DNA of 64,000 nucleotides from an uncultured Actinomycetota bacterium (GCA_963805715.1 CAWDVK010000013.1:80352-144351), one strand, 5' to 3'. Positions 6,628 through 54,878 are shown, numbered from the stretch's first letter. Notes: generated from the sequence alone by a model not told the origin. Program-made: numbers and translations.

Positions 6628-6983
6628 TCCGATTGCTCCTCTGGCGGGTAACCTGGCAGCGCAGCCGCCCTGAACGCCCTGTGTCTAGTCCCACCTGACG
6701 CGCGATCGGCGGCATGAGCGCGCAGGCCAGGGCAGGGCGATCATGGATAAGCCCTGGGCTGGGTGCGTGGTCGGTCCGGATCACGTTGTTCTGCGGTGTC
6801 TGGCTCCCGTGTGCGAGACCCTGGGTTTGGAGCAGCACGATAGCGGATCTGGCCTGGCGGCCGCGGTCAGGGGTGCTGGTGGCTGGGTCTGGCCGCAGCC
6901 CTTCCCCTGTGGCAGGGCACCACCGAGCTGCTTTGCGACGAAGATCAAGAACCGCGCGCCAAGGCGGCGCCACGCAGCGGTCT

Positions 6984-35271: not shown

Positions 35272-35508
35272 GTGCTCTGCCTGGTGAGCGCGTTCGTGGC
35301 GCAGCTGGCCAGGCAGGCCGCCAGCCAGGGGCCGGACGGCATCGAGGCGGCGTGCGGCGGCGCCTTTACCATTGTCGGCGGCGGTGTCGTCCTGCCTTAC
35401 CCGGGAGAGCTGGTGGGAGCGGTCGGCGTCAGCGGCGGTACGGTCGAACAGGACAGGGAATGTGCACGCGAGGGACTCCAGTCCCTGGCAGGAGGCAGCC
35501 ATGAGTGA
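35272..35508 (+). pseudogene. GlcG/HbpS-like (DUF336) protein, C-terminal 78 aa only
   Basis: GGAFTIVGGGVVLPYPGELVGAVGVSGGTVEQDRE matches the conserved C-terminus. The N-terminal roughly 60 aa are absent, and the methyltransferase 3' end occupies that position. Stop overlaps the aminotransferase ATG. Confidence 0.45.
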
Positions 35509-36850
35509 CCAGACACCCGATCCGGCGCGCGGCGCCGAGGTCGTGGCCATGGACCGGGCGCATGTCTTCCACTCCTGGTCGGCCCAGCGGGGCCCGGCCC
35601 CGATCCCGATCGCGAGCGCCGAGGGCTCCTACTTCTGGGACTACGACGGCAACCGGTACCTGGACTTCTCCAGCCAGCTGGTGAACACCAACATCGGGCA
35701 CCAGCACCCGCGGGTCACCGCGGCCATCGCGGCGCAGGCGGCGAGGCTCACCACCATCGCCCCGCAGCACGCGAACGACATGCGCGGCGAGGCCGCGACC
35801 CGGCTCGCGGGTCTCGCCCCGGACGGGATGGAGAAGGTGTTCTTCACCAACGGCGGCGCCGACGCCAACGAGAACGCCATCCGGATGGCGCGGCTGCACA
35901 CCGGCCGGACGAAGGTGCTCAGCTTCTACCGCTCCTACCATGGCAACACCGGCGCGGCGATCACGTCCACTGGCGATCCGCGGCGCTGGCCGAACGAGTT
36001 CGCGGTCGGGCACGTGCACTTCTTCGGGCCCTACCTGTACCGGTCGGCGTTCTGGGCCAGCACGCCGGAGGAGGAATGCCAGCGCGCGCTGCAGCACCTC
36101 GAGCAGGTCATCGAGCTCGAGGGCCCGTCGACGATCGCGGCCGTGCTGCTGGAGACGATCGTCGGCACGGCGGGCGTGCTGATCCCGCCGCCCGGCTACC
36201 TGGCCGGCGTACGGGCGCTCTGCGACAAGCACGGCATCGTCTACATCGCCGACGAGGTCATGTGCGGGTTCGCCCGGGCCGGCTGCTGGTTCGCCTTCGA
36301 GCAGCATGACGTCGTGCCTGACCTGATCACCTTCGCCAAGGGCTCGAACTCCGGATACGTGCCGATCGGCGGCGTCATCATCTCCGGCGAGATCGCCGCG
36401 ACCTTCGATGACCGGGTATTCCCCGGCGGCCTGACGTACTCCGGTCACCCGCTCGCCTGCGCGTCCGTGGTCGCGACGATCGACGCGATGAAGGACGAGG
36501 GCGTGGTGCAGCATTCCGCGGCGATCGGCGCCGAGGTGCTCGGGCCGGGTCTTCGCGAGCTGGCCGAGCGGCATCCGGTGATCGGCGAGGTGCGGGGAGT
36601 GGCCTCGTTCTGGGCCCTGGACCTGGTGTCCAACCGGGAGACCAGGGCCATGCTGGCTCCGTACGGCGGCTCATCGGAGGCCATGAACGCCCTGGTGGCC
36701 GGGTGCAAGGCCCGTGGCCTGATGCCGTTCACCAACTACAACCGGCTGCACGTGGTGCCACCGTGCACGGTGTCGGAGTCCGAGGCCAAGGAGGGCCTGG
36801 CCATCCTGGACGAGGCACTCGCGGTCGCCGACCGCTACTACGAGGGCTGA
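35502..36850 (+). CDS. Class III aminotransferase (omega-amino acid:pyruvate type)
   Basis: 449 aa. Internal start MSDQTPD. Motifs YHGNTGAA, DEVMCGFARAG and TFAKG (Lys in KG). Confidence 0.85.
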
Positions 36851-37851
36851 CTTCGGCCGGCCCCGATGATCTCGTCCCGTACAGCCGCCCACTGAAGAGA
36901 GTGAGCGATGCCCTCCGCGATGCTGTACGCAGGCGCCCATTTCAGCAGCCGCCTTGCCTTGTCGCTGCGGGTATAGACGCCCGCCACATCGCCCGGCCGC
37001 CGGGCCTTCTCAACAGCAGCCACCGGCTCGTCAGCCACCGTATTGAACGCAGCCAGCAGCTCCCTGACGGTTGTGCCGCGGCCCGTGCCCAGGTTGATGA
37101 CGGCAGATCCGGGGCCGGCGGCGGTCAGGCGGTCAAAGGACTCGACGGCAGACACGTGAGCGCTGGCCAGGTCCCAGACATGAACGTAGTCACGGATGCC
37201 CGAGCCATCACGAGTCGGATAGTCCGTGCCCGTGATCTCGAAGGGCCGCTTCTGCTCATACGCCTCGATCATCCGGCCCAGAGCGTGGCTCGGTCGGCGC
37301 TGCTGCAGCCCGGTGCGCAGCTTGGGGTCAGCGCCGATGGGGTTGAAGTAGCGGAGCGAGAGGGTCCTGATCTGCTGGCTAGCAGCAATATCGGAGAACA
37401 TGGCCTCGCATACCGCCTTGGTTCGCGCATATGGGCTCTGCGGGTCGATCGGCGAATCCTCCGCTACGCGCAGATCGGTGCCGGGGGCGTAAATGGAAGC
37501 CGACGAACTGAAAATCATCCGGCGGCACCCATTTCGCAGCAGGCTCTCCACGAACTCCAGGCTCTTCGTAACGTTAGCCCGGTAATAGCTCACGGGATCG
37601 GCCACGGAGGCCGGCACGACAATCAGGGCCGCGCAATGCACCACGGCGTGAATATCGGGATGGTCGGCATAGATCTGGTCGACAAGACCGCCGTCAGCAA
37701 TGTCACCGTGGTAGAAAATACGGTCGGCGGCGAATTCACGGCGACCGGTGATGAGGCTGTCGACGATCACCGGAGTGATACCGCTGTCCAGGCACGCTGA
37801 AGCGATAGTACTCCCGATGAATCCGGCGCCCCCGGAAATAAGAACCTTCAA
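36838..37851 (-). CDS. galE: UDP-glucose/UDP-GlcNAc 4-epimerase (GalE/PelX-like SDR)
   Basis: MKVLISGGAGFIGS Rossmann, SSSASIY and YARTK catalytic motifs. Markedly lower GC and atypical codons (aaggttcttatttcc) suggest horizontal origin. Confidence 0.85.
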   Translation of the reverse strand: MKVLISGGAGFIGSTIASACLDSGITPVIVDSLITGRREFAADRIFYHGDIADGGLVDQIYADHPDIHAVVHCAALIVVPASVADPVSYYRANVTKSLEFVESLLRNGCRRMIFSSSASIYAPGTDLRVAEDSPIDPQSPYARTKAVCEAMFSDIAASQQIRTLSLRYFNPIGADPKLRTGLQQRRPSHALGRMIEAYEQKRPFEITGTDYPTRDGSGIRDYVHVWDLASAHVSAVESFDRLTAAGPGSAVINLGTGRGTTVRELLAAFNTVADEPVAAVEKARRPGDVAGVYTRSDKARRLLKWAPAYSIAEGIAHSLQWAAVRDEIIGAGRSQPS

Positions 37852-37855
37852 TGTG

Positions 37856-38764
37856 CTACCGCTTCTCTTTCGTGGCTGACCGTATCGCGGAGCCCGCTTG
37901 ATCGACTGTGCTTAGCTGATTGACCCGGGCGACGCTGCCGGCGGCCGCGCGATCAAGCGCACGAAGGAGAAGCGGCCGCGCGCGCTCGGGAGGCCGCTGC
38001 GGCGGAACTAGTGGTGGCGTTACCGTCAGGCTGTCCTCAAGCTGAGTGTAGATGCCGCGGTAAGCTGTCATTGCCTTATCCAGAGCAAAGAACTGAGCGA
38101 CGCGGCTCCGGGAATTCTCGGCGAAGAAGCTGTAGAGCGGCGCATCGTTCATGAGCTTCCGCATGGCCGCTGCCAGGCCGCTGACGTCGCCCGGCCGCAC
38201 CAGCAGGCCGCACGGGCCCACGGCTGGCTCCGTGCCGTCGTCCAGTGAGCTGAGAATCAGCTGCTCCATGCCGCCTACGGGCGTGCCGATGATGGGAAGC
38301 CCCACGGCCATCGCCTCCATGACGACGAGCGGCTGGCCCTCGTTGTAACTCGGCAGGATGAGCATGTCGTAATCCCCGAGCACTTCTGCCATATTGAGAT
38401 TGCCGCGGAAGCAGATGTAGTCATCAAGACCCAGATCGCTGGCCCGCCGATAGCACTCGGCCGCGTAGTGGGGTATTTCCTCCGCATGGCCCATGACATC
38501 CAGGGTGAAGTTGCCGACGCCAGCCTGAACCAGCTCGGATACGCTGGCGACAAGATCGATGAGTCCTTTAATGGGTACCAGCCTGGCACAATAGGCAAGA
38601 CGCCACGCTGGCTGCTCGCCGGAGCCAGCTGCCTGAGCGCGCCTTTCTTGCAGGCGCAGGCGGGCGGGCCCGAATTTCTCGAGCGTCATGCCATTCGGTA
38701 TGATGTTCGACTTGGCCGCGTCTAGGCCCAATGCCGCTAAGTTAAGCCGCTGCCGGGATGCCTT
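37856..38764 (-). pseudogene. GT4 glycosyltransferase, C-terminal Glycos_transf_1 domain only (PelF-like)
   Basis: Homology starts around LGLDAAKSNIIPNGM. The EGQPLVVMEAMAVGLPIIGTPVGG motif is present. The N-terminal half is replaced by an IS4-like transposase remnant. Confidence 0.6.
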
Positions 38765-39744
38765 CGAGCTTGATCGTTGGCGGGCTGGTGTAGGTGACGC
38801 CAACGTCGCCAGGGCGTTTGACCCGGTAGGAATTGTGGCGGGCGCGTTTGATGACGCGAGGGCAGGTTCGCAGGCGGCGGGGTGGGTTGAGCCGTTCCAG
38901 GATCTCGGTGAAGGCCGCCGCGGTGATCGCGGCTGGGTGATCAGGGGGGAAAGGCCGCCGGATCATCGATCTGGCGGCGGACGAGGCGGACGGTGCGGAT
39001 GAAGCTGACCCGGTCGGGGTCGTGCCCGGCTTGGTCTGCGGCCCGGCACATCAGCTCCCGGATCGCGTAGTGGGCCAGCAAGATTCCCCACATCTCCTGT
39101 TCGATGAGTTCAGGGGATTGGGAGCGGAGGATTCCGCCGGCTGCGCGCAGGTGGGTCTTGATCTCGTCCAGCCCGGATTCGTGTTCCCATCTCTGGTGAT
39201 AGGCGAGCGCCATCTTGGCTGCGGTCAGCTCGGCCGGGTCCAGCAGGGTGGTGATCACGCAGATCAGCTCGCTATCCTCGCCGCTGCGGTCGGGGACGGT
39301 GTATTCCGCCGCGCGCACGATGCGGGCCTGGTCCGCATCGATCTGCTCCCCGCCGCGCGCGGCGGCCAGCAGGGTGGCCTTGTGCCTGACCGTGGCGCCC
39401 GGCGCGAAGATCAGCGCAAGATAGGGGCCATCAGGCAGGCGGCGGGCCAGCGGCAGGGTCACGGCCGCGCCTACCCGCCAGCACAGCGCCGCCCCGGTCG
39501 CGGCGTACAGGTCCCACAGCTGCCAGGAGTAGAACCCTGAGTCCGCGGTGATCAGCATGTCCTCATCCACCGGGCCGGTGAGCCGGGCGGCCAGCTCGCG
39601 CTCACCAGCGCGGCACGGCCCCATCGCGGCGGCGACCTGAGCGTGCGTGCCGCACTCCGACAAGGACACGACCTGGAGCTCGCGCTCTTCTACATGGCAT
39701 TGCGGCCGGCCCTGCATACGAGTAGCTGATTCAGCATCCCCCAC
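38742..39744 (-). mobile_element. IS4-family transposase remnant (N-terminus missing, frameshifted C-terminus)
   Basis: DDE region (ORF 38941..39744) and the C-terminal motif in another frame (ORF 38742..38966: RVIKRARHNSYRVKRPGDV). Abuts the GT4 fragment. Confidence 0.65.
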
Positions 39745-39749
39745 TGCCC

Positions 39750-40745
39750 TACCTCGTGACTTCCTGTCGCCACGGCCGCCTCAATCCTAGGCCAATTATC
39801 GTACCGCCGGGCGTGAAGCCTGAGCGACGCGCCCTCATGTCCGGACTCGGCGCCTTTGCGCATATCACATCTTCTGCGAACGCATGCCTTTTAGGCGGCC
39901 CGCTGGCTCTTGCGTTCGAGTTCCTTTGAGCGCTATCCACTATTCGCCTCGCATATACCTACAAATAATGACACAGGGGCTTCACTTCGGCCTCTCTCCG
40001 GGACCGCAAGTTCTTCGGCCTGCGTTGTAAGCCGTGCGGAAAATATTACTAGATCGCTATCAAATCGGTTGATCGGAGCGCCACATCATTTGAACTTGGC
40101 AGATGTCTTCGACACGGCCCTGCTAGGCCGGCTAATCTCGCTGCTGCCGCCGGGTCGTGACGGCCAAGTGATGAGACGGAGTGCTATACATGACGGGGTA
40201 CTCGGCAAATCAATGCGGGTGCCGCACGCGCCTGATCACGTCAGCTTATCGGCTCGCGGGAAGTACGTTTTTACTTCTGCGACGTAATCCGGCAAGTAAT
40301 GCCGAGACTGTCGGCGGTCTTACCCGATGAGGATCCCCGAAGCAAATTCCAGGGAGCTCGCCCTGCGGATCCTCTGAGCTGCAAAGGTCGCATGCGACAG
40401 CGTCGGGCTATCGGCCCGCTGCTGCGGCGAACTAGCTATTGCGCGCCTGCCGCTCGTGACATCCTGCGTCCATTCCAACACTGCTAGTGAGGGGTTAGTG
40501 TAGTTATAAATTCCCGGCGGCCATCGCGGGTAATGTCGATCTCCACATGGGCGACGGCGCTCTTGCTTCTCGGCACAATTGTTCTCACTTTCGCCGTGCG
40601 CTACAGAGATGACCACCTTCTCGTGTCTGCGCGTCCTGCTCTGCATTATCGTCGCAGCCGCCCCTCGTCCAGGATCAGGCATCCGGCGTCGTCTAATTGG
40701 CGTGGCGGCTGCCTTGACCAAGGCTGACATCGATAGTGGGGACCT
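39750..40745. other. Roughly 1-kb AT-rich non-coding region upstream of the GT2 gene
   Basis: GC is clearly below the window average. No ORF longer than 65 codons and no coding-like codon bias. Confidence 0.5.
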
Positions 40746-42659
40746 TTGAACAGGCACGTCAACCCGTTACAGGTAATAGGCTCGTCCGACACTCACGATC
40801 CAGGCTTGCCAGGGAGTGCGAGCCAGGCCGAGGCCGAATATGTTGCGCGGGCTGGCGAACCTCCTGGCAACCATCCAGTAGCGGATGCCACTGAGACGGC
40901 CCCCATCGTTTGCGCCTTCACTGAGGATCGGAGTGCCACCGGGCACACAGGCCTTCCTCCCGCAGCTGAGACCACCCGATCTGGCCAGGCTGATACCCGC
41001 CACGACCTGAGCCATGCTGTCGTCAGCCAGGTGAATTCTCGTCGGTCACACGTTGCCAACGTCCGCTCTGCAGATTCACCCGAGACGATCGCCCGCGCTT
41101 CCGATGAGTTACAGCAATGCGGGCTGACTGCGGCGATCAGTCTCGCAAAGGCCACTGATGCAACCGCGCAGTTTCCCGCAGTCACGGCGCCGCACCAGCA
41201 TCGCCGCGAGGCCCGCGCCGTCGGCACTGTACCGGGCCCGCCGGCCATGCCAGCCCAGCCGGCCACGTCAGCCCGGCCGGCCACGTCAGCGCTGCGGGCC
41301 GCCGATACGCCGGCGCTGCCAAGAGCCCGCTGGAGGCACGGGCTGCTCGTGGCCTGCAGCGTCATCCTCGGCCTGGTGGTCATAGACGTGGCCCTTGGCA
41401 TCCATGCCGTGCACGGCAGGGCCGGAGGCGTCCGCATCGTCGCTGGCTGGCCTGGGATGAGATACCTCATCTACGCGGTGTGGCTCGTGCCCCTCGGCGA
41501 GCTGGCGCTCCTGGCTGCCGGGCAGCTTTTCTATCGGTACCGCTTCCGCACCGCCGCGCCGGGAAAGTTCCGCCATCTGGTCATCCAGATAACCACGACG
41601 GGCAAAGAGGAACGGCGGGTCAACGAGATCATCGGGCAGCTCCGCGGCTACCAGCTGCAGATGAGCCACGAGATCTGGGTCGTCACCGAGCCCGGCCAAG
41701 GCGATCGTTACCCGCGAGCGGACCGGGTGATCATCGTCCCCGCCGGATTCACCGTAAGCTCCGAACGCAAGGCTCGCGCCCTGGAGTTCTCCCGCCGGGC
41801 CCGGGTGGACCGGGGGCTGGACAGCCCGGAAGTCAAGATCCTCTTCAATGATGACGACGTGGCACCGACCAGCGGCTACATCGAGAAGGCCTTCGCCGCG
41901 GACTACGACATCTGCGAGGGCGTCACGGCGCCCCGGGCCGAGTACGCTATTAGGCCGCTGGGTCATTTCCTCGCCAGCCACGCCGACGACATGCGTACCC
42001 ATGCGTGCCTGGTCTACTGCTCGGTATTCCAGGGCATCCTCGGCCGCCCCCTGCACGTGCACGGGGAGGGGCTCACGGTGACCGGCGAGGCTGAGGGCCG
42101 TGTCACCTGGGACTGGCCGGCCTTTGCCTCCGAGGATCTCGTCTTCGGGCAGAAGGCGGTCAGGGAGGGACTGCGGTGGGGCTGGTTCCACGAGTACGTG
42201 GAGCTGACGTCCCCGTGGACCTTGCGGGATTTCGTCACCCAGCGCCGGAGGTGGCTCTGGGGGGACATCCACGGCGTCATGCACCGGGAGGTGCTCTCGC
42301 TCCCGGGTGCGATCGTGGTCGTGGCCAAGTACCTGGTGGGCCTGGTCACCGTGGTGTTTTCGCTGACCGGCCTGTACATGAAGCTGACCGGCGAGCTGCC
42401 GGTGGCCTCGCCCGTGTACGACGTGTCGAAACTGGCGATCCTCTCCTGGCTTGCGGTGTTCTTCGCCTGCGGGTGGATCGGCGCCAGCTCACGGGTCTCC
42501 GCGAGGAATGATGATTCCAGGCTGCTCAACGCCGCGGCCGCCTCGGTCATGGTGCCGGTGAGCTCGCTCCTGACGCTGGCGGGGATCTTCGTGGCCCTGG
42601 CCCAGGGCAACCCACGCACTTTCCAGGTGATCAGGAAGACCCGCAGCGGGGCATCATGA
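40746..42659 (+). CDS. GT2 processive-synthase-like membrane glycosyltransferase (CesA/CslA/NodC/HAS class)
   Basis: DDD, SED and QRRRW (Q-x-x-R-W) motifs with flanking TM helices. The roughly 170-aa Ala/Pro/Thr-rich N-terminal extension may be untranslated; an alternative start lies near 41240. Confidence 0.75.
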   Translation: MNRHVNPLQVIGSSDTHDPGLPGSASQAEAEYVARAGEPPGNHPVADATETAPIVCAFTEDRSATGHTGLPPAAETTRSGQADTRHDLSHAVVSQVNSRRSHVANVRSADSPETIARASDELQQCGLTAAISLAKATDATAQFPAVTAPHQHRREARAVGTVPGPPAMPAQPATSARPATSALRAADTPALPRARWRHGLLVACSVILGLVVIDVALGIHAVHGRAGGVRIVAGWPGMRYLIYAVWLVPLGELALLAAGQLFYRYRFRTAAPGKFRHLVIQITTTGKEERRVNEIIGQLRGYQLQMSHEIWVVTEPGQGDRYPRADRVIIVPAGFTVSSERKARALEFSRRARVDRGLDSPEVKILFNDDDVAPTSGYIEKAFAADYDICEGVTAPRAEYAIRPLGHFLASHADDMRTHACLVYCSVFQGILGRPLHVHGEGLTVTGEAEGRVTWDWPAFASEDLVFGQKAVREGLRWGWFHEYVELTSPWTLRDFVTQRRRWLWGDIHGVMHREVLSLPGAIVVVAKYLVGLVTVVFSLTGLYMKLTGELPVASPVYDVSKLAILSWLAVFFACGWIGASSRVSARNDDSRLLNAAAASVMVPVSSLLTLAGIFVALAQGNPRTFQVIRKTRSGAS

Positions 42660-43723
42660 CGAGGCGCCGTCTCCTGTTGCTGGGAAGCCTGCTTGCCGCC
42701 GGGACCGTAGGCGGCTGCTCAGGTGTCTCGCACCTGGGATTCTTCCAGCCACCCTCACCGCCGGCCGCGGCAGCCGCGGCGATCGGCCGCGCGCCGCACC
42801 GGCAGCTCGGGATCGATGTCGACTTCTACCTTTCCCCTGGCATGAACGTCCCCTCCGTGGCCAGGACGGATGTGGCATATGTGAGGAGCCTGCACGCTAA
42901 CTCGCTGTCGATCTCGTTCCCGTTCTTCATGGACGGTCCAAGCTCCTCCGGGGTGCGGGCAGGGAGCCAGACACCGTCTCCGGCTACGCTCGCGGTCCTC
43001 GTCAGGACCGCCGAATCAGCCGGCCTGTACGTCTCCGTGCGTCCCCTGCTGGACGAGCACAACCTGGGAATCTCCCGCGTCTACTGGAAGCCCGCAGACC
43101 CGGCCACCTGGTTTGCTAGCTACCGGCGGTTTCTGCTGCCCTACGCGGAAATGGCGCAACAGGCCCATGTCCCGGTTCTGGTCACCGGCGTCGAGTTCAG
43201 CCAGTTCAGCAGGTCGCCGAGGTGGACGCAGCTGGGTTCCGCGCTGCGCCGGGTATTCAGGGGAACACTGTCCTACTCGAATTACTGGGGCTATGCGGGC
43301 CGCCGGAATGTCAGCAGCAGCGGGGTCGTACAGACCGTGGATGCCTACAAGCCGGTGCTGCAGCCCGATGGCACCGCCAGCGTCGCCCAGCTGACTGCAG
43401 CCTGGGACGCATACGCCGCGAGCCTGCCGAGCGGCATCGTGCTGTCCGAGGTCGGCATTGCAGCGCAGCCTGGGGCATACGCGCAGCCCTACCAAATTGT
43501 CTGGCCAGGGGAACCAGTGGTCCCGTCCGTCCAGGGCCACTGGTTCACCGCGGCCTGCCACGCCGTCACCGCTGAGCACCTGGGCGGCATCTACTTCTGG
43601 TCACTGAACTTCGGGCAGCAGCTCACCGTTCCCCCAGGGCGGGCCGATCCCGCGTCGTTCACCGATAGCCGCGGCGCGGCCGCGATCTCCGCCTGCTTCA
43701 AGCGGCTGGGCAGCGAGCACTGA
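42656..43723 (+). CDS. Lipoprotein with putative glycoside-hydrolase (TIM-barrel) fold
   Basis: Signal peptide plus lipobox (LLLLGSLLAAGTVGGC). Start overlaps the GT2 stop (ATGA). The hydrolase-fold assignment is tentative. Confidence 0.55.
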   Translation: MTRRRLLLLGSLLAAGTVGGCSGVSHLGFFQPPSPPAAAAAAIGRAPHRQLGIDVDFYLSPGMNVPSVARTDVAYVRSLHANSLSISFPFFMDGPSSSGVRAGSQTPSPATLAVLVRTAESAGLYVSVRPLLDEHNLGISRVYWKPADPATWFASYRRFLLPYAEMAQQAHVPVLVTGVEFSQFSRSPRWTQLGSALRRVFRGTLSYSNYWGYAGRRNVSSSGVVQTVDAYKPVLQPDGTASVAQLTAAWDAYAASLPSGIVLSEVGIAAQPGAYAQPYQIVWPGEPVVPSVQGHWFTAACHAVTAEHLGGIYFWSLNFGQQLTVPPGRADPASFTDSRGAAAISACFKRLGSEH

Positions 43724-43724
43724 T

Positions 43725-45413
43725 ATGGCGACCTTGACCACCGTCACCTCCCGACGGGCCCGCCACAGTGCGGCCCTGGGCGCACAGCACGAGTTCCCGC
43801 GAGCACTCCTCTGGGCGCCACTCGCCGCGGTCCTCATCACCCAGGCGATCCTGTCGGCACGGCTGATCCACGTCAGCGTCGCCTCAGGGGACGAGAGCCT
43901 CTACATTTACAGCGGCCACCAGCTCATCCACGAGCTGTGGCACGGCGGCGGCACCCCCTATTACGAGACCTACTTCTCCGGCGCCCCCGACCTTTACCCG
44001 GTCCTGGCCGGCATTGCCGACCACCTCGGCGGCCTGGCAGCCGTGCGCCTGATGAGCCTCGCCTGCATGCTGACCGCCACCGGGCTGCTATATGCGACCG
44101 CGGACCGCATCTTCGGCTACTGGCCAGCCGTCACCGCCGCCGCCCTGTTTGCCTCACTCGGCGTCACCCAGTTCCTCGGCGCGTACGCCACCTTCGACGC
44201 GATGGCCCTCATGCTGATGGCCGCCGCCACCTACTGCGCGCTTCGAGCTGCAGAGGACCGCGAAGGTGCCGCACGGTGGCTGCTGGTCATCCCGGCCGTG
44301 CTTCTCACAGCCAACGCCATAAAGTACGCCTCGGCCCTGTTCGACCCTGTCGTTATCGGCCTGGGCGCTCTGATGATCCGCGATAACGGCTGGAAGCGCG
44401 CAGCCCAGCGGGCGGTTGCGCTATCCGGCACCACGCTGCTGCTGCTGGTCGTCGCGGTTTTCCTGGCCGGGAGCGGCTATCTCAAGGGCATCCTGGAGAC
44501 AACCCTGACCCGGCAGAGCGGGAGCGTCGGCCCACTGGTCGGGCTGACCTCCTCAACCCCAGGCCAGATCATCTCCCACTCCTGGAACTGGATCGGCCTC
44601 GTCATCTGCCTGGGCGTGCTGGCCCTGCTGACGGCCGTACCGCTGCGTCGCGAGCGGCGGCACCTCGTTGTGCTCCTGCTGCTTGACGTGGCCGGGATCC
44701 TGGTGACGCTGGAGTACCTGCGCCTGGACACGCTCATCTCGGCGGAGAAACATGACGATTTCGGCGCCTGGTTCACGTGCATAGCCGGCGGTTACGCCCT
44801 GGCCCGGGGCGCGGAACTCGTCCGCCGCTGGTATGCCAGGATCCCGTTCATCATCGTGGCCGCGTCAGCGACCGGGGCCGCAGTGTTCCTCTACCTGCCG
44901 CAGGCCGCTGGCTTCTTCAGCGGCAACGCTATTGTCCCGCAGGCTCTCGTCCTGCGGCCGTACCTTGCATCGTCTTCACGGCATTACCTGCTGCTGGGCG
45001 GCCAGGAGCCCATGGCCATCCCCTACTACCTGCACCTGAACATCCCATGGCAGAACCTCACCGATGACAACTACATCAAGTACCCGGTGCCCGGGCGGCG
45101 TGGCACCTACATGGAAGGCGTACCGGGCTTCGAGGCCGCGATCCACCATCGTTACTTTGCGGTGGTGAGCTTCCCCGCGGCCGCGCTGAACACCTCCTGG
45201 GATCAGATGGAACTCCGGACTGTGCGGTCAACTCCCGGCTACAAACTTGTCTCGACCGTCGGCGGCCCGACCTATATCTACCCTCCTGACTTCTCCGCGT
45301 CGGCCAGCCGCCGGCGGATGTCGACGGCCTCCCGGGCCGGGTCGAGGGCCGCGCGCTTGTCGCCGACCTCGCCCAGCGACACGCCTAGGGCTCCTTGGGG
45401 TCGAGGACTTTGA
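43725..45413 (+). CDS. GT-C superfamily membrane glycosyltransferase (ArnT/PMT-like)
   Basis: About 11 TM helices with a DE motif in the first periplasmic loop (SGDESLYIYSGHQ). Starts 2 bp after the lipoprotein gene. The 3' end runs into a duplicated repeat, so the true stop may lie earlier. Confidence 0.55.
   Translation: MATLTTVTSRRARHSAALGAQHEFPRALLWAPLAAVLITQAILSARLIHVSVASGDESLYIYSGHQLIHELWHGGGTPYYETYFSGAPDLYPVLAGIADHLGGLAAVRLMSLACMLTATGLLYATADRIFGYWPAVTAAALFASLGVTQFLGAYATFDAMALMLMAAATYCALRAAEDREGAARWLLVIPAVLLTANAIKYASALFDPVVIGLGALMIRDNGWKRAAQRAVALSGTTLLLLVVAVFLAGSGYLKGILETTLTRQSGSVGPLVGLTSSTPGQIISHSWNWIGLVICLGVLALLTAVPLRRERRHLVVLLLLDVAGILVTLEYLRLDTLISAEKHDDFGAWFTCIAGGYALARGAELVRRWYARIPFIIVAASATGAAVFLYLPQAAGFFSGNAIVPQALVLRPYLASSSRHYLLLGGQEPMAIPYYLHLNIPWQNLTDDNYIKYPVPGRRGTYMEGVPGFEAAIHHRYFAVVSFPAAALNTSWDQMELRTVRSTPGYKLVSTVGGPTYIYPPDFSASASRRRMSTASRAGSRAARLSPTSPSDTPRAPWGRGL
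45305..45371. repeat. 67-bp direct repeat, copy 1
   Basis: Nearly identical (2 mismatches) to 45555..45621. Encodes an AVDIRRRLA TPR-like peptide on the minus strand. Confidence 0.75.
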
Positions 45414-45464
45414 CACTTGAACTGAGTTCTCAAACGGACGTAGCGTTGATATGGCCCGCTCCAC

Positions 45465-46223
45465 TCATTGCAGGCAGAGCCCTGACCAGCCACTTTGGGG
45501 TGGCACAACCGACGCGAGGACCGGTCGGACTAGGCGCAGCGGGCTGGCGGCGGTCAGCCGCCGGCGGATGTCGACGGCCTCCCGGGCCGGGTCGAGGGCC
45601 GCGCGATTGTCCCCGACCTCGGACAGCCGGACACCGAGGATGTTCAGGCGGCTGGCGCGTTGTGCGGCAGGTGCGTCAGGGGGGAGCGTGTCGAGGAGGT
45701 GCTGGGCGAGGTCACGAGCCGGGCGCAGAAGCTCGGTGCTGTAGCGGGGCAGTGCGCCCTCCACGACGGCGGCCAGCGCCGGGCTGGCATGGTCTATGAC
45801 CACGCGCAGGACCGGCGGGGTGGCGTGGGTGGCGAGCTGAGCCCGGGCACCCAGCAGATCGAACAGTACCGAGCGCACGGCTGGATACCGGGCGGCGGCA
45901 GCGAGCATGATCAGGCACTGACGGGCCGCCGCAGGCCCGGTCTCACCATCGGACAGCAGCTCACCGAGGAGTTCCGCGGTCCGGGGCTGGGCGAGGTGGG
46001 CGGCGATGAAGTCCTCGGCGAATCGGTCGGGCGTCAGCGGAGGCAGCACGCGCTCGGCGTGCGGCTCGGTGCGGGCCGGGTAGAGCCGGTCGTGAGCGGC
46101 CAGCAATCGGTCGGCTGCTGCGTCCCCATCAGCAAGGTGTGCGCGACACAGCCAGGACCGAGCCTCGGAAGAGCAGGACACGGGTCCGAACAGGCTCGCC
46201 ACGAACACCACCCGCTCCAGCAC
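45465..46223 (-). pseudogene. NB-ARC/TPR-type regulator helical-region fragment, with a duplicated TPR-like tail at 45228..45508
   Basis: Contains LSEVGDNRAALDPAREAVDIRRRLTAA; a duplicated ORF carries LGEVGDKRAALDPAREAVDIRRRLADA. There is no ATPase domain. Confidence 0.4.
45555..45621. repeat. 67-bp direct repeat, copy 2
   Basis: See copy 1. The period is 250 bp. Confidence 0.75.
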
Positions 46224-46344
46224 ACCCGGACCCAGTTCTGCGGACCGCCAGAGCGCCGCTCATGTTCCAGCAGGAACGCTGACAGCTCGTCACGGCCTGG
46301 TACAGGCATGTCGTCATGCCCGGCGCACACTGCGGCTAACGCGG

Positions 46345-46752
46345 TCATATGCACCGTGAGCGGCGAACACCTGGCCGAGCTGCTCCTGGTATGCAGTTCA
46401 TGCGTCTGCACGTGCTCAAAGGCGCCCGGTCGCAGGCAAGTTCCTCCGCTGCATTCATGAGCAGCGTCGCGACGCCGAGTCGGCGGAATGGCCCGGCAAC
46501 GGCGATCTGGTGGACCAGCGGGATGCCGCGGTCCCTGAATCCGGCGTAGTTCGATCGCCACCGGATCGTGACGACGCCGATGACAGTGTGATCCCGCACG
46601 GCGATGAGGCTGGCTCCGCCGCCAGCCGCGTGGTCGGCCAGGTGCTCGCGGGCAGCGGGCTCACCGTCACTGACCCATTCGATAAGGAACTGAACCGTGC
46701 GCTCAAGATTGCCCTCGCCGACCGGCTCGATGATCACATCCGGAACGCTCAT
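46345..46752 (-). CDS. GNAT family N-acetyltransferase
   Basis: Motif A QIAVAGPFRRLGVATLLMNAAEEL. Internal start MSVPDVII. The IS110 element begins immediately upstream. Confidence 0.6.
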   Translation of the reverse strand: MSVPDVIIEPVGEGNLERTVQFLIEWVSDGEPAAREHLADHAAGGGASLIAVRDHTVIGVVTIRWRSNYAGFRDRGIPLVHQIAVAGPFRRLGVATLLMNAAEELACDRAPLSTCRRMNCIPGAARPGVRRSRCI

Positions 46753-47015
46753 GGCACAAGACTGACACGACCCACCGCGCACTCTCGTAGCCGCTGTGAA
46801 TCGATCCGGCGTTTCCGGAGGCTCTGACACGCCGGAGCGATTTGCTGGTCGGCTGTTGATGCGAGGAGGCGGGACATCCGCACCGCGTTCTCCATAGCAT
46901 CCCTGCGGGCGCCTGGACGGACTGCCTATCTCGTTTGTCGGTGCTCCTGCGTGTGCTCTGGGCAGGCGGGTGATGCTCCGGGTGAAAGTACGAGCTCGGG
47001 AAAGGAGGCCCGGCA

Positions 47016-48040
47016 ATGTCTGTTTACGTCGGAATCGATGTGCACCGCAAGCGGTCCCGGGTGGCGGTGGTCGCCGGGGACGGGAAGGTGCAGCTGAACC
47101 GCAATGTGGTGAACGGCCAGGAGCCGATCCTCAGGCTGATCGGCGGATTGCCGACGGGCACGCCGGTGGCGTTCGAGGCCGCTTACGGCTGGGGCTGGCT
47201 GGTGGCGCTGCTGGAGGACTACGGGTTCGACCCGCACCTGGTACACCCATTGCGGTGCAAGGCGATCGCCTCAGCCCGGCTGAAGAACGACAAGGTCGAC
47301 GCCGCGATCCTGGCCCAGCTGCTGCGCGCGGACCTGCTGCCCGAGGCGTGGATCGCCCCTGCGCCGGTCCGCCAGCTCCGGGCGCAGCTGCGGCACCGGG
47401 CCAGCCTGGTCCGGCTCGGCACCCAGCTGCGGAACCGGATCCACGCGGTGGCGGCCGATTTCGGCTACGACCGGACCGGCAGCTACTGGACCGGGCCCGG
47501 CCGCGGCTGGCTCGCCGAGCTGGACCTGCCCCCGGTGTCACGGGAGATCGTCACCGACTGCCTGGCGTCCATCGACGCCCTCGCGCCGGTGATCGAGCGG
47601 CTCGACGGCGAGCTGCACCAGCGTGCGAAAGCAGACCCGCGGGTCAAGGTGCTCAGGACGCTGCCGGGCGTCGGCGAGTTCACTGCTCTGGTCATGCTGG
47701 CCGAGATCGGTGACATCACCCGCTTCTCCAGCGCCCGCAAGCTGGCCAGCTGGGCCGGGCTGACCCCGACGGTCCGCGGCTCTGACCTGACCGTCCGGCA
47801 CGGGCACATCTGGAAAGCAGGGCTCGGCGTGGCTGCGGTGGGTCCTGAACCAGGCGGCGCAGACCGCCAGGCGCTCCCCGCAGTTCGCCGGCACTTACGC
47901 CGCCATCGCTAAGCGCCGCGGTAAGAAGATCGCCACCATCGCGGTCGCCCGCAAGCTGCTCACCCGCGCCTGCCACCTGCTCGCCGAACAGGCCGCCGGG
48001 ACACCCGGCACCACGACACCACATACCAGCGCGGCAGCCT
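47016..48040 (+). mobile_element. IS110-family insertion sequence transposase, frameshifted near the C-terminus
   Basis: N-terminal DEDD domain (MSVYVGIDVHRKRSRVAVV) and a C-terminal domain. The frame breaks at atctggaaagcagg (AAA where AA is expected); the conserved tail (LRWVLNQAAQTARRSPQFAGTYAAIAKRRGKKIATIAVARKLL) reads in the +1 frame through about 48040. Confidence 0.8.
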
Positions 48041-48582
48041 GAACACCAGGATGCCCCCGCAGACCAGGAGGGTCACCACCCCCGGGCGCGCTCGCTCCTG
48101 CGGCATGAGCCGGCCACCAGGCCGCGCTCGATCTTCTGACTGAGCAGCCCGGTCCCCGGACACATGGTCATGGTTGTCCCGCCCGCTACATGGCGAGACG
48201 CCGAATGGGTGCTTGCGAGACCACTCCGCCAGCCACGAACCGGGGAACACCAGCGACCCTCCACCCCAGCACGAACGGAACCCTTCCTCGCCCCCAATGA
48301 TCTGTCGCCGCTCGTCGGCGTCCAGCTCGTTCGTCCTCGCCGCTGCGCGGCTGCGGGCGCTGAGCAGGACCCCTCCAACGCGGCAACAAGACCCCGGCAG
48401 CTACGAGGAAGATCCCGAAGAACAGTCAGGCCAGCCCGACGACCGCAACGCACGTCACCGGGTCAAACCGCTACGCCCTCTTGACAACAGTGACCCTCAT
48501 GGGTGCCGCGATCAGGGCGGGTCGGTGTCAGAGGTTCCATGCATGCTGGCGACGACACAGTGCCAGCACCGAGGAGAGACCG

Positions 48583-49017
48583 ATGGCCGTCAGCTTCCAG
48601 CTAGTGATCGACTGCGCTGACCCTGAGCCGCTCGCGCGGTTCTGGGCCGCCGCATTGGGATACGAGCTGGAACCCCCTCCAGATGGCTTCGCCAGCTGGG
48701 ATGCGTACTGGCGAGACGTTGGAGTGCCCGAGGATGAGCTGGGCACTGGCGCGGACTGCATCGTCGATCCCGGCGGGCGGGGGCCGCGGATCTGGTTCCA
48801 GGTAGTACCCGAGCGCAAAGCGGCCAAGAACCGGCTGCACCTCGATATCGGTGTCAGCGGCGGCCGCGCGGTCCGATCGAGACGCGCAGGCAGCGCGTCG
48901 GCGCGCCGTCTGGCCGATCTCGGTGCCGCGCTCGTCGGTGTCCCGAGCACCAAAGGCCTCGACCACTACGCAGTCGCGATGAAAGACCCTGAGGGCAACG
49001 AGTTCGACATCAACTGA
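48583..49017 (+). CDS. VOC/glyoxalase-like family protein
   Basis: Start MAVSFQLVIDCADPEPLARFWAAALGYE with a typical glyoxalase-like fold signature. Confidence 0.6.
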   Translation: MAVSFQLVIDCADPEPLARFWAAALGYELEPPPDGFASWDAYWRDVGVPEDELGTGADCIVDPGGRGPRIWFQVVPERKAAKNRLHLDIGVSGGRAVRSRRAGSASARRLADLGAALVGVPSTKGLDHYAVAMKDPEGNEFDIN

Positions 49018-49153
49018 CGGCCGCCGCCGTCCTGGGCCGCCCGCCTTCTGCCAGCGATCTCGCACCGGCGTTCCCTGGAACGCCCGCTCGTGCCGCCGAT
49101 CGGCAGGACGCTGCGTTAGACAGCGAAGCTCTCTGCCCGGCCGTGGTGCGGGG

Positions 49154-50599
49154 TTACCTGGCGCGGACCGCGGACAGGAACGAGGCGTAGCTCCAGGACA
49201 GGTTGCTGACGCTCTTCTCGTAGCCGGTCGAGGCGTCGAACTGCTCGCTGAGCTCGAGGTGATCGCTGTGGAAGATGATTGCCTGCAGCATCTGGTCGCC
49301 GGCGCTCTGCAGGGCCGCCGCTGCTGCGGCCGGCGTTGTCTGCGCGCCGATTCCGGCCTGGCTGAAGAAGCTGGCGGAGTTGGCGTCGAGGGGAACCGTT
49401 CCGGCGGCGGTGATCGCGCTCGCCAGCCGGTAGCAGAGCTCGGCGAAGTTGGCCGTGGGCACCGCCCAGGGGTGGTCACCCACCTGAGCATCGGTGTCAC
49501 CGTCGTAGAGGTCCCCCGGATAGCGCCCGAGCAGGGGACCGATGCCGCGTTGCTGATCGGGCCCGTTGATCGGGTAGAAGTAGCTCGAGGCCGGGTCGGC
49601 CCACTGGCTGCGCAGCAGCGCGGCGGTCGCCAGCAGCCTGGTATCGGTCACCGGCACGGCGCCGTAGATCGCGGCCATGACGATGTCGATGTTGGGGTCG
49701 TAGGGAGTTTTGTCGGTCGGGACCGGGAGCAGCGACTGGTAGTACTGACCGTTCCAGTGCTCCTGGAGGGCGTTCTGCAGCCAGGGTATGGCGGTGCTGA
49801 GCCACCCCGGGACCGGGATCTCGAGGGTGTTGCCGGTGATCGCCTGGAAACACTGCAGCTGCACGGCGCGGGCGAAGAACGAGGCACCGGTCTCCTCCTC
49901 CCACAGATTGACCGTCTCGCCCTGGTAGGCGCCCTGCAGGAAGTTCAGGTTCGCTGCGATCACGGCGTTCGCCACGGTCTGGGTCGGCGCGTCGAGCTGG
50001 GAGAACAGCTGCAGGATCGCCAGCGTCTGGAGGGCAGGCCCGTCGGTCTGATCGCTCCAGTTCCGCGGCGCGCCGTTGATGAAGAACGACCCGAGATCGA
50101 AGTCGCCGCCCGAGTTCTGGCAGATCTGCGCGAACTGCACGTAGTCGATCAGCGGCTGGCTAGTGGGGACCGTGCCCGCCGCCAGCTCGATCGCCACGAT
50201 CGCCGCGTCGCGCGTCCAGTTGTAGACATAATCCTGGGTCACGTTCGTGGCGCTGTTCTCCCACGACGGTGAGGCGAGCACGCACCCGGGCTGCGACAGG
50301 ACATGCGCGTTCTCCGGGTCCTCGAACACGAATCCGTCCGACGCGACGTTGCGGAACATCAGCCAGAACATGTACGGAGCGATTGCCGTCAGGTTCGACT
50401 GCGCCGCCGCAACCTGCACCTCGCTGTACTGTAATTCGCCCACCGAAGGCCACCCTCTTTTGTCGGCGCGAGCGTAACGCGGGAAGCGCACGGCCACAAG
50501 CGCCGTGTTGGAACCTATCTCCCTTTCCGAACTCCCAGGGGTTGGCAATTCGCCCCCATAGGACTGTCCGGCGATCCGTGTAACTGATCTGGTCGACAC
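49154..50599 (-). CDS. Glycoside hydrolase family 15 (glucoamylase/glucodextranase-like), no signal peptide
   Basis: GCVLASPS, YVYNWTRDAAI and catalytic LWEEE motifs. Confidence 0.75.
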   Translation of the reverse strand: MSTRSVTRIAGQSYGGELPTPGSSEREIGSNTALVAVRFPRYARADKRGWPSVGELQYSEVQVAAAQSNLTAIAPYMFWLMFRNVASDGFVFEDPENAHVLSQPGCVLASPSWENSATNVTQDYVYNWTRDAAIVAIELAAGTVPTSQPLIDYVQFAQICQNSGGDFDLGSFFINGAPRNWSDQTDGPALQTLAILQLFSQLDAPTQTVANAVIAANLNFLQGAYQGETVNLWEEETGASFFARAVQLQCFQAITGNTLEIPVPGWLSTAIPWLQNALQEHWNGQYYQSLLPVPTDKTPYDPNIDIVMAAIYGAVPVTDTRLLATAALLRSQWADPASSYFYPINGPDQQRGIGPLLGRYPGDLYDGDTDAQVGDHPWAVPTANFAELCYRLASAITAAGTVPLDANSASFFSQAGIGAQTTPAAAAAALQSAGDQMLQAIIFHSDHLELSEQFDASTGYEKSVSNLSWSYASFLSAVRAR

Positions 50600-50706
50600 C
50601 CGGAGGTGCTGGCATCATAATTGGCCGAACCGGCCTTCATAACTCAGCCTGTCGCATAAACGGCGCGCCTTGGACCGGTTAGGGCTGGTTTGCGGGACAA
50701 TGGCGT

Positions 50707-51740
50707 ATGCCGCAGAACTTCGTTTATCCGCAGCGTGATCAGCCATTGCTGATGCCGGCGGGCATGCGCGAATGGCTGCCCGAGGACGATCTGGTGTTCG
50801 TGGTGCTGGACGCGGTGGCCACCCTTGATCTGGGCGAGTTCCGCCGGCGGTACCGGGCCGATGGGCACGGTCGCGCGGCGTCCGGCCCCGGAGATGATGG
50901 TCGCGCTGCTGCTGTACGGGTACTGCCAGGGCGAGCGGTCCAGCCGGGTGACCGGGAAGCGGTGCGTGCGGGACGTCGGCTACCGGGTGGTCACCGGCGG
51001 GCTGCAGCCCGATCACGCGACCATCGCCCGGTTCCGGGCAAGGCATGAGAACGCGCTGGGCGGGCTGTTCAGCCGGGTGCTGCGGCTGCTGGCCGCCGAG
51101 GGCATGGTGTCGCTGGGCACCCTCAGCCTGGATGGCACCAAGCTGGCCGGCAACTCCGCGTCTAAGGCGAACCGGACGCTGCCGCAGATCGGGAAGCTGC
51201 TGGCCGAGGCAGCCGCGGTCGACGCCGCCGAAGACGCCCAGGACGACAGCAACGCGCAGCCGGCGACGCCGCGGGCGCTGGCCCGCCGGGCCGAACGGCG
51301 CCAGCGGCTGGCCGCAGCCCGGGACCGGCTGGCGGCCGAGGACCAGGCCCGCCGCGACGCGCAGCGGGCCAGGCAGGAAGCCCGGGACGCCGCCGCCGCT
51401 GCCGGGAAACGGCGCGGGGGCCGGAGGCCTGCCGCCGAGCCGCCGCGCGCCAACCGGGCCGGCACCGAGCCGCGGGCGAATACCACCGACCCTGACGTGC
51501 GGGTGATGCGTAACCAGAAAGGCTACGTCGCCGGGTACAACGGCCAGCTTGTTGTCACCATGCAGCAGGTCATCGTCGGCGTGATGCTGTCCCGGCATCC
51601 CGTCGACCGCACCCTCCTGCACCCGCTGCCGGACACCTGCCGCCAGCAGCTGATCCAGGCCGGAATCCGCCCGCGGCTGCGTACCGTGCTCGCCGACTCC
51701 GGCTACGTCAGCGAGGACAACTTCGCCCGCGCCACTGCCG
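50707..51740 (+). mobile_element. IS1182-like transposase remnant (frameshifted, C-terminus truncated)
   Basis: N-terminus REWLPEDDLVFVVLDAVATLDL, then (after a frameshift) PEMMVALLLYGYCQGERSSR and DSGYVSEDN. The gene ends abruptly where the PelF-like N-terminal fragment begins. Confidence 0.65.
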
Positions 51741-52070
51741 GTACAGCTGCCAGACGGGTCCCGTGTCGCCGGCCGTCAGGGCATCGAGTGCCGCGAAGAC
51801 CTCGTCCGACAACTGCCTGCGCCCGGCCGGGCCGAGCGCGAGAGAGGACGCGGACGCGAGCTTGAAGTCGTCGACATGGTCATTCATGCTCAGGAACACC
51901 GGATAGACCCACCGGACGTTGGGCGGCACCTCATAGACGTGCTCTGTCGAGCAGTTGCTGTCCCAGGCGATATGGATGATCCCGATCGAGCGGTCGGGGT
52001 TGGCCCGGACGATGTCATGGATCACGGCCGATACTCCGCCGCGAAGGTACGGGTACGTGGACTCGGCCAC
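51740..52070 (-). pseudogene. DUF3492 (PelF-type GT4 N-terminal domain) fragment
   Basis: MAESTYPYLRGGVSAVIHDIVRA matches the PelF/DUF3492 signature (xYPYvxGGVSsW). Only about 110 aa are present. Confidence 0.5.
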
Positions 52071-52596
52071 GATGGCCAGGTCAACGTCCTCATAGCGGCG
52101 CGCCGGGCTGCGGCGCCGGGAGAGCGGGCGAGATATCGACCTCGTGCTCGGCAGAGCCCTATTACGCGAGTCTGTACCAGTACATACACCACGTAGATCC
52201 CGCGGCCTTCGTCGTGGCGAATCCGGGAACTGCCGTTAATGCCTGCTTCCTCAGCCCTGGCAGCATGGTGGCCAACATCTTCGTGACATTTGAGCATGAT
52301 GCGGCAACCTATATCTCGCAGTATCAGGGAAATGTCATAGAGGCGAACGGGCAGTTTTCTGCGGGCACTCAGTACCGGGGCACTGTCTTCTGATCGGGTT
52401 TACGGTGCCAGCAGCGCTCAGATGCCTCAGATCATCGCCCTGGCCGCAGTGCGGCATGCTGGATACGCCTACGTGACCGACGGCACCCTGCCCAATCCGT
52501 GGGATTCAGTGGCCAGCTACATTGCCGCCGAGGCGCGCCTGATGGCGACTGCGCCGCCGAGTGCTCACGGCAGCGGGCGAGGAGTCACCGCGCCGG

Positions 52597-53468
52597 CTAG
52601 CCGCGGAACGAATAGCTCGGCTGCCCGGCTACTCCTGGTTCCAGAACGAAAAGTCCCCCGCCGGCCTCGGCGCCGGGGCCGGCCGCCGTCGTCACGTAGA
52701 GAAGCTCCAGGCCGGCACCGCCGAACGCGCAGCTAGTGACGTTGGCGTGCGGGAACGGCACCTCCCGGGTCAGCGTGCCGTCGGGTGCGTAGCGGCGCAG
52801 CGCGCCGCCTCCCCACAGCGCGACCCACACGCCGCCCTCGGCGTCCACCGTCAGCCCGTCCGGCAGTACCCCGTCCTGGCCGACGCGGGCGAACGGGCGG
52901 CGCCTCCTGATCGCGCCGGAAGCCGCATCATAATCGAGCACGTCCACCTGGTAGTCGAGCGAGTCCACGTAGTACATGAGCCGCTCGTCCGGGCTCCAGC
53001 CGATGCCGTTGGAGATGCCGATGCCGGTCAGCAGCCTGGTCATCGTCAGGTCGGGATCCAGCCGGTAGAGGGCCCCGGCCCCCGGCCGCTCATCCGCCGC
53101 CATGGTGCCCGCGTAGTACCGGCCGGCCCGGTCGCATGCGCCGTCGTTCATCCGGTTGCCCGGAAGGTCGGCCTCGACGCTGGCCAGCAGCGTGGCTGCG
53201 CCGGAGTCCAGGTCCAGCGCGAGGAATCCGTCCCGCGCCGCCAGCACCAGGCCGCCCGCCGCCCGTGTCATCACCGCCCCGACCGGCTGGCCGACGTCCC
53301 AGCGGGCCAGGTCGCCGGCGGCGTCGATCCGGTAGACCAGCCCGGCCGGCACGTCGATCCAGAACAGCGACTGGCTGCCGGCGTCCCAGCACGGCCCCTC
53401 GCCGAGCTCGGCCGGGGGGACCGGCAGCGCGACTGCGTGCCCGGCTGCGCGGCCGGCCGCGGCGGTCA
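52597..53468 (-). CDS. SMP-30/gluconolactonase/LRE-like (SGL) family protein
   Basis: Six-bladed propeller motifs (GEGPCWD, NDGACDRAGRYYAGT, SNGIGWSPD). Confidence 0.7.
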
Positions 53469-54835: not shown

Positions 54836-54878
54836 ACTGCCGACAATAACGCGCCGGGCGACCCCGGCGCGCGGGTGG

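Follow-up and report, generated by a model that had tools for sequence, protein, structure and literature searches.

The window analysed here, a 64,000-nt stretch of DNA from an uncultured Actinomycetota bacterium (GCA_963805715.1 CAWDVK010000013.1:80352-144351; positions are counted from its first letter), carries the remains of a five-gene Pel-like exopolysaccharide cluster of an uncultured soil Streptosporangiaceae lineage. Very probably, one ancestral pelF-galE cluster was broken by a mosaic block and later eroded by a deletion of 3.5 kb. The pelF gene is represented by an N-terminal fragment (DUF3492 part; 51741-52139, minus strand; codons 3 to ~139, start codon lost) and a C-terminal fragment (GT4 C-terminal Rossmann domain and tail; 37856-38728, minus strand; residues ~303 to the end), and the block of ~13 kb lies between them at 38.72-51.74 kb. 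Uninterrupted, intermediate and further eroded alleles of the locus coexist in public metagenomes at 97.5-99.9% identity. Since PelF cannot be made, the polysaccharide pathway is dead.

Both fragments were recognised in profile searches. The open reading frame (ORF) at 51708-52070 on the minus strand matches Pfam DUF3492 (E = 1e-12, profile 7-76/268) and the NCBIfam PelF model NF038011 at profile positions 1-69/489. The ORF at 37856-38803 on the same strand matches Pfam Glyco_trans_1_4 and Glycos_transf_1 (E = 1.5e-24 and 7e-21, respectively) and positions 273-489/489 of the PelF model, with 104 bits against a cut-off of 100. These matches bear out an earlier interpretation of the window made without database searches (hereafter the sequence-only reading), which had placed a DUF3492 N-terminal and a GT4 C-terminal fragment on the minus strand in N-to-C order. 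The extents that it had given, 51740-52070 and 37856-38764, were corrected to those above by mapping on sister contigs 99.6-99.9% identical to the window. The closest database relatives of the C-terminal fragment are full-length DUF3492-GT4 proteins (nearly all with DUF3492), and those of the N-terminal fragment are DUF3492 proteins.

On every full-length reference, the two fragments are collinear and non-overlapping. They correspond to residues 21-136 and 299-525 of a 534-amino-acid (aa) protein, P0016, and to residues 18-139 (87% identity) and 303-533 (83%) of the 577-aa PelF of a related Streptosporangiaceae species (locus L197). The sequence-only reading had foreseen this collinearity but expected the fragments to cover about residues 1-110 and 225 to the end, instead of the ~3-139 and ~303 to the end found here. 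The intervening pelF residues ~140-302, ~163 codons, are lost, and a tblastn search for this missing middle did not find it elsewhere in the whole window. One match of the PelF middle at 40773-40847 (minus strand, E 0.7-7) was rejected as chance, being antisense to a GT2 ORF, ending in a stop and having no support from the native sequence of the sister allele L182. With the middle absent and the start codon deleted, no contiguous ORF covers the whole PelF model, and what the window carries is a PelF pseudogene.

Relatives of pelF were surveyed with one genome per species, giving 80 pelF loci that represent species other than the source species (best pelF match 69% identical). For both fragments, L001 is the closest relative, L002 and L003 come next and the others follow. 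Identity to L001 is 77% for the N-terminal and 73% for the C-terminal fragment, and the intact proteins of L001 and L002 share 74% and 69% over the same regions. Both fragments can thus be assigned to the same PelF subfamily, with an identity profile that matches those of intact orthologue pairs, and not to different GT4 subfamilies. Moreover, sister alleles with the same flanks match both of them at 99.5-99.9% identity, and the N-terminal fragment is 100% identical over 69 aa to the sister allele L185, in which the ATG is kept.

At the inner end of each fragment lies a truncated transposase gene, as the sequence-only reading had described. The C-terminal fragment is abutted by an IS4-family insertion sequence (IS) remnant (38719-~39745, minus strand; NF033592 profile 136-332/332), which tblastn aligns to aa 147-409 of an IS4 transposase of 412 aa and which is without ~490 bp at its 5' end, the first ~146 transposase codons included. 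Its right terminal inverted repeat of 29 nt (38719-38747) is intact and directly abuts pelF; a Streptomyces plasmid (L084) carries an intact IS4 copy whose right repeat aligns with this one, GCTTAACTTAGCGGCATTGGGCCTAGACG (38747-38719, minus strand). Identity with the uninterrupted allele L182 starts at 38728, and 10 nt (38719-38728) are common to the IS4 end and native pelF. The inner end of IS4 is joined at ~39703-39745 to a 950-bp promoter-type segment and is an illegitimate internal breakpoint. The N-terminal fragment is abutted by an IS1182-family remnant (50620-51740, plus strand, left end approximate; NF033551, Pfam DUF772 and DDE_Tnp_1), whose transposase gene starts at 50707, shifts frame near 50880 (profile positions 2-52 are read in a different frame from 54-343/488) and breaks off at position 343/488, exactly where the pelF fragment ends. 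Homology to intact pelF ends at 51741, placing this junction at 51741/51740, and because IS1182 is cut inside its transposase gene, the join is illegitimate. A plasmid search for IS1182 relatives, intended to define the ends of the element, gave only matches that were too distant.

Two IS remnants bound the block as proposed, but a real transposon terminus is present only on the IS4 side, the IS1182 side being an internal break, and the junction between IS4 and the C-terminal fragment is the only one resembling a transposition product. Neither target duplications nor repeats flanking the block turned up in a repeat search. Given boundary IS of different families, an internal break at the IS1182 end and no flanking repeat, the block is not a composite transposon. 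No transfer RNA gene was found in the window and no integrase family among the scanned ORFs, so that the block does not have the features of a classical integrative island.

Directly downstream of the C-terminal fragment lies galE (36838-37851, minus strand), which closed the ancestral cluster and still encodes a complete UDP-glucose 4-epimerase of 337 aa. Its product matches TIGR01179 with 292.6 bits against a cut-off of 262.3 (profile 1-326/332). A neighbour-joining tree of 83 GalE sequences places it with the pelF-linked galE of L001 and L002, and the exact protein is present on more than 40 contigs. The pelF fragments and galE have a guanine-plus-cytosine (G+C) content of only 62-64% in a window of ~70-72%, and their third-position G+C is 0.73-0.78 versus ~0.9 in the surrounding genes; the lower-G+C stretch extends over 16 kb, from 36.8 to 52.6 kb, between genes with third-position G+C near 0.9. 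A low-G+C epimerase following the C-terminal fragment had been noted in the sequence-only reading, where it was called PelX-like. The best PDB matches of the protein, however, are canonical GalE, with 206 bits for 8wxk versus 108-111 bits for chains of 6wj9 and 6wjb, which we take to be PelX (the UDP-GlcNAc C4-epimerase of Pseudomonas protegens). The epimerase thus appears to be a canonical GalE and not a PelX orthologue, and "PelX-like" would apply only as a functional analogy. As galE is still an intact ORF, it may serve general UDP-sugar metabolism. The 80 galE loci that a metagenome scan with GalE yielded (70-75% identity) are housekeeping ones without pelF nearby, and the scan is uninformative on the state before the interruption. 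At their 3' ends, galE and a convergent aminotransferase gene overlap by 13 nt (36838-36850), and the third-position G+C falls sharply from 0.92 to 0.75 exactly at this boundary.

Comparison with intact relatives indicates that the window descends from one five-gene cluster flanked by genes for a gluconolactonase (SGL) and an aminotransferase. In the ancestral layout, a Spherulin4-type hydrolase gene ran leftward, and the genes for the PelG-like protein, a 248-aa protein, PelF and GalE ran rightward. The uninterrupted pelF-galE pair that the sequence-only reading had suggested seeking in relatives is present in L001 and L002, the closest loci of the species survey, in which galE follows pelF immediately (72-73% galE identity). 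Upstream of pelF in the relatives are genes for a multi-pass membrane protein of ~480 aa and for a second protein of ~245 aa, with a Spherulin4-family gene in divergent orientation, and the membrane protein gene adjoins pelF in nearly all 80 genomes. The membrane protein is annotated as hypothetical only and gave no Pfam match at E<=10 (PelG model included) and no NCBIfam match. A Foldseek search of the PDB library with its AlphaFold model (predicted local distance difference test score, pLDDT, 84; predicted template modelling score, pTM, 0.85) retrieved transporters of the MOP superfamily (MATE, MurJ and Wzx) with a probability of 1.0. A MOP-superfamily fold is presumably the class to be expected for PelG, hence the name PelG-like. 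The ~245-aa protein shows only a faint DUF3142 match. The conserved actinobacterial neighbourhood occupies L001 5200-11874, L002 5478-11900, L185 8755-12970 and L197 4638-10350, and its remnants in the window lie at 36838-38728 and 51741-52600.

Intact PelF relatives are single proteins of 577-588 aa, and those of L001 and L197 match the full NF038011 profile with 226 bits (cut-off 100). The flanks of L197 are 84-91% identical to those of the window, and this locus comprises, in order, the aminotransferase and SGL genes, the Spherulin4 and PelG-like genes, g244, the gene for the intact PelF and the second aminotransferase gene, with no block. PelD, PelE and PelA-deacetylase families were detected neither among the called genes of L185 and L197 nor among the scanned window ORFs. 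In L197, galE is precisely deleted, the pelF tail being fused to the last ~9 galE codons (L197 10319-10350 versus window 36838-37931), and, despite the galE loss, the fused gene still overlaps the convergent aminotransferase gene by 13 nt; this is another, independent lesion of the cluster. In the window, class-III aminotransferase genes in inverted orientation stand on either side of the decayed cluster (35372-36850, plus strand; 53474-54928, minus strand). Their products are only 33% identical, indicating old paralogues and not a recent duplication.

Sister-strain loci, obtained by look-up of exact protein sequences, preserve earlier states of the window's own locus. In L182, which is 99.85% identical to the window, pelF from residue ~180 to its end is continuous with galE and the aminotransferase gene, and IS4 is absent. 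In L185 and L201 (99.4-99.7% identical), the SGL gene is accompanied by Spherulin4 (intact, 299 aa), the PelG-like gene and g248, and pelF begins with its ATG; L201 terminates exactly at 51741, the pelF/IS1182 junction. L199 and L200, 99.9% identical to window positions 52139-50397, combine an undeleted 5' cluster (intact Spherulin4, PelG-like and 248-aa genes) with the window's own junction of pelF-137 to IS1182. The interruption of one ancestral pelF-galE unit, as put forward in the sequence-only reading, is thus upheld by L001, L002, L197 and L182, but a clean insertion is not: the event was a replacement in which ~163 codons went missing.

Relative to L185, the window has a 3,532-bp deletion extending from Spherulin4 codon ~142 to pelF codon 2 (L185 1-9229 corresponds to window 61335-52129, and L185 12762-12970 to window 52139-51931); half of the Spherulin4 gene, the PelG-like and 248-aa genes and the start codon of pelF were lost with it. 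Its junction at 52129-52139 is an 11-nt microhomology, TCGAyATCTCG. The adjoining Spherulin4-family (GH135-type) remnant (52129-52600, plus strand) retains codons ~143-299 of 299, with a frameshift near 52390, and was identified by a Pfam match of 31.8 bits (cut-off 30.2) and by tblastn matches to the sph4 genes of L001, L002 and L185. Because L199 and L200 have undeleted 5' genes together with the window's IS1182 junction, the block predates the 3.5-kb deletion. Further lesions are seen in other sister loci: L202 and L186 carry an additional 190-bp deletion in Spherulin4 (window 52390-52579), and in L182 (~275-277) a TGA replaces a conserved Trp codon in the pelF middle (AWMA*YTE). The cluster is therefore eroding in several independent ways in the window's clade.

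Inside the block, the segment next to IS4 (39703-40654, plus strand) is a diverged copy of the Spherulin4/PelG-like intergenic (promoter) region with the first 47 PelG-like codons, inverted relative to the pelF fragments. Its 5' PelG-like stub at 40494-40631 was detected with a profile of 26 PelG-like proteins (E = 1.7e-10). At the DNA level, the segment is 67.7% identical to the native copy (L185/L199) and 74% to L197, versus 99.6-99.9% for the native remnants, which marks it as a foreign or paralogous copy brought in with the block. Two motifs, TCAAATCGGTTGATCGG and, ~50 nt further on, GGCCGGCTAATCTC, are conserved in non-coding DNA upstream of the PelG-like gene in four lineages (window 40060-40152; L001 ~6579-6680; L002 6603-6701; L003 ~4460-4540), and could be an operator/promoter pair of the cluster. 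An Rfam scan of 39700-40800 found no known RNA element, and a scan of 36.5-41.3 kb for promoter and terminator consensus sequences found nothing above background.

Next to this segment is a three-gene GT2/GH113/PMT_2 unit (40746-45413, plus strand; Pfam Glyco_trans_2_3, GH113 and PMT_2), which has no relation to the pel-like cluster. GT2 probably starts at 41247, where three copies of an 18-nt tandem repeat are found (41237-41300). With their overlapping stops and starts, the three genes appear to form an intact glycan-synthesis unit, and their products have no NCBIfam family match. The unit is followed by an ORF with TPR repeats (45465-46223, minus strand; Pfam TPR_10) and a GNAT acetyltransferase ORF (46345-47016, minus strand; Pfam Acetyltransf_1). 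A direct repeat of 88-93 nt (45297-45389 and 45547-45639; 88% identity, 250-nt spacing) overlaps the 3' end of PMT_2 and is taken to be internal TPR units of the minus-strand TPR ORF region. Further on lie an IS110-family element (46986-48495, plus strand; transposase ORF 47016-47912, NF033542 profile 1-279/343), a Glyoxalase_6 ORF (48364-49017, plus strand; Pfam Glyoxalase_6) and a GH15 ORF (49154-50599, minus strand; Pfam Glyco_hydro_15), which aligns only to positions 274-610/616 of TIGR01577 and is probably truncated at its 5' end. None of the 80 pelF loci surveyed in other genomes has the block genes, nor does the syntenic L197 locus. At IS110, contigs otherwise 99.9% identical to the window depart from it at 47981, 48360 or 48495, indicating that IS110 is multi-copy in the population. 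To the right of IS110, other contigs enter at least three contexts (OmdA/cobW, collagen-like/glyoxalase paralogue, and hydrolase/SDR), and this divergence reflects either real strain-level rearrangements or chimeric assemblies.

Taken together, these data suggest the following course of events. IS4 would have inserted first, at about pelF codon 300, with its intact terminus staying joined to the C-terminal fragment. Subsequently, pelF codons ~140-302 and the 5' 490 bp of IS4 would have been replaced through illegitimate joins by ~12 kb of mosaic DNA, comprising the pel-type promoter copy, the GT2/GH113/PMT_2 unit, the TPR and GNAT ORFs, IS110, the glyoxalase gene, the probably truncated GH15 gene and the truncated IS1182. 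Finally, in the window's sublineage only, the 3.5-kb deletion followed, probably by a microhomology-mediated event. That the block preceded the deletion is read directly from the alleles; IS4 as the first hit and the mechanism bringing in the block are what we infer, and capture may have proceeded by end-joining or by IS-associated deletion and capture.

Several observations weigh against parts of this account. The 10 nt shared by IS4 and native pelF make simple transposition indistinguishable from recombination at a microhomology, and the other end of IS4, at which a target-site duplication would show, is gone. The TGA in L182 implies that pelF may have been dead already, or that the L182 strain decayed independently. 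No contig of a near-identical strain spans the whole intact pelF, since L185 reaches only to residue 71 and L182 begins at ~180, so that these strains may carry a different lesion in residues 72-179. In addition, the divergence of contigs at IS110 means that part of the right half of the block may have been joined separately.

Another view of the block is that of a cassette swap, in which a different polysaccharide-synthesis module was placed under pel-type regulatory DNA and retained while the PelF machinery decayed. The promoter/PelG-like stub does lie directly upstream of, and co-oriented with, the apparently intact GT2/GH113/PMT_2 unit, and the left flank of this module is identical in all ten contigs listed, but we regard such a swap as unlikely. 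The presence in the block of a diverged copy of another pel-like part (39703-40654) points to more than one pel-like source, and the two pelF fragments might accordingly derive from two paralogues, or from a paralogue and a foreign copy, lying on the same strand by chance. This origin is very unlikely for fragments that do not overlap, that jointly lack only residues ~140-302 and that are nearly identical to sister alleles with the same flanks; their identity profiles to L001-L003 and L197 are also those of intact orthologue pairs, and between these flanks L197 has a single PelF gene, which is intact. Scrambling of the native cluster in place by IS-mediated inversions, with the 39.7-40.65 kb piece as displaced native DNA, would agree with the homology of this piece to the native intergenic region, its inversion relative to pelF and the apparent single occurrence of each ancestral segment in the window. 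It is highly improbable in view of the low identity of the piece (67.7%, versus 99.6-99.9% for the other remnants) and of L199 and L200, in which the native copy still precedes the same pelF-137/IS1182 junction at its original site; an interim model that derived the stub from native DNA by two nested inversions was ruled out on these same grounds.

Assembly could also have generated the split by chimeric joining at repeated IS elements, as IS110 is multi-copy, contigs from different samples diverge there and many contigs break at the IS4 junction. There is next to no chance of such an artefact, however, with every join checked being crossed by independent contigs from different samples and assemblers (metagenome and metagenome-assembled genome): the IS4/pelF junction is spanned at >=99.9% identity by L081, L165-L171, L176 and L177, the IS110-glyoxalase join by L189 (99.96%) and L082 (95%), the stretch from GH15 through IS1182 and the N-terminal pelF fragment to sph4 by L186, L199 and L200 (99.7-99.9%) and L082 (95%), and the deletion junction by L083 and L186. 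It is likewise scarcely credible that the two halves form a functional, naturally split PelF reassembling from two polypeptides. Both fragments are open without internal stops, and the C-terminal one has a possible TTG start at 38803, but the window lacks ~163 residues of the GT-B N-terminal domain (DUF3492/Glyco_transf_4 region), the N-terminal fragment is without start codon, promoter and PelG-like partner, and the intact relatives are single proteins. Disruption of one ancestral pelF-galE cluster by a mosaic block, followed by the 3.5-kb deletion, thus remains the very probable explanation.

The findings have a direct consequence for annotation, in that the two GT4 ORFs and the Spherulin4 ORF should be labelled as pseudogene fragments. 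As a by-product, the analysis reveals a widespread actinobacterial neighbourhood of Spherulin4, MOP-fold, small unknown protein, pelF and galE genes that is unlike pelDEADAFG and may merit its own study. Gram-positive pelDEADAFG loci with accessory galE and PelA-type hydrolase genes have been reported, also in actinobacteria (Whitfield et al. 2020, PMC7112168; Bundalovic-Torma et al. 2020, PMC7112194). Like these loci, the ancestral cluster combined pelF with a multi-pass membrane partner, a GalE-type epimerase gene and a divergent glycoside-hydrolase gene. Unlike them, L185 and L197 show no PelD, PelE or PelA-deacetylase families, the hydrolase is of Spherulin4 type and not of PelA type, and the membrane partner resembles PelG only in its predicted MOP-type fold; of a gene for such a protein, the window keeps only a foreign 47-codon stub. 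PelF itself (NF038011; DUF3492 and Glycos_transf_1) is matched at the two ends of the model by the window fragments, but the window gene is a two-piece pseudogene with ~163 residues and the start codon gone.

The fungal galactosaminogalactan cluster, whose synthase is of the Gtb3 type, provides another comparison; the ancestral cluster differs from it in having a bacterial PelF-type GT4 synthase, and no deacetylase gene was seen. Published accounts describe, for the fungal cluster, the Uge3 epimerase and the Sph3 Spherulin4/GH135 hydrolase and a polymer rich in N-acetylgalactosamine (GalNAc) (PMC4817252, PMC11356417). The pairing of a Spherulin4 protein with a UDP-glucose 4-epimerase is common to both clusters, and by analogy with Pel and with the fungal clusters the ancestral product may have been a Pel-like, GalNAc-rich polymer.

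As for the mobile elements, the window's transposase remnants match the IS4 and IS1182 models, and IS4 keeps a terminal repeat like that of the intact copy. Unlike working IS, both are dead fragments, of different families and with no target duplication. In Streptococcus thermophilus JIM8232, pelD is truncated beside transposase genes and the locus still supports biofilm (PMC7112168). The window resembles that strain in having a pel locus damaged beside transposase genes, and differs from it in that the synthase gene itself is destroyed and partner genes are deleted. The decay described here is ordinary pseudogenisation and represents a new example of a known process, the loss of an exopolysaccharide locus through mobile elements, in which coexisting alleles make the order of events readable: the block first, the microhomology deletion later, with independent small deletions and a nonsense codon elsewhere.

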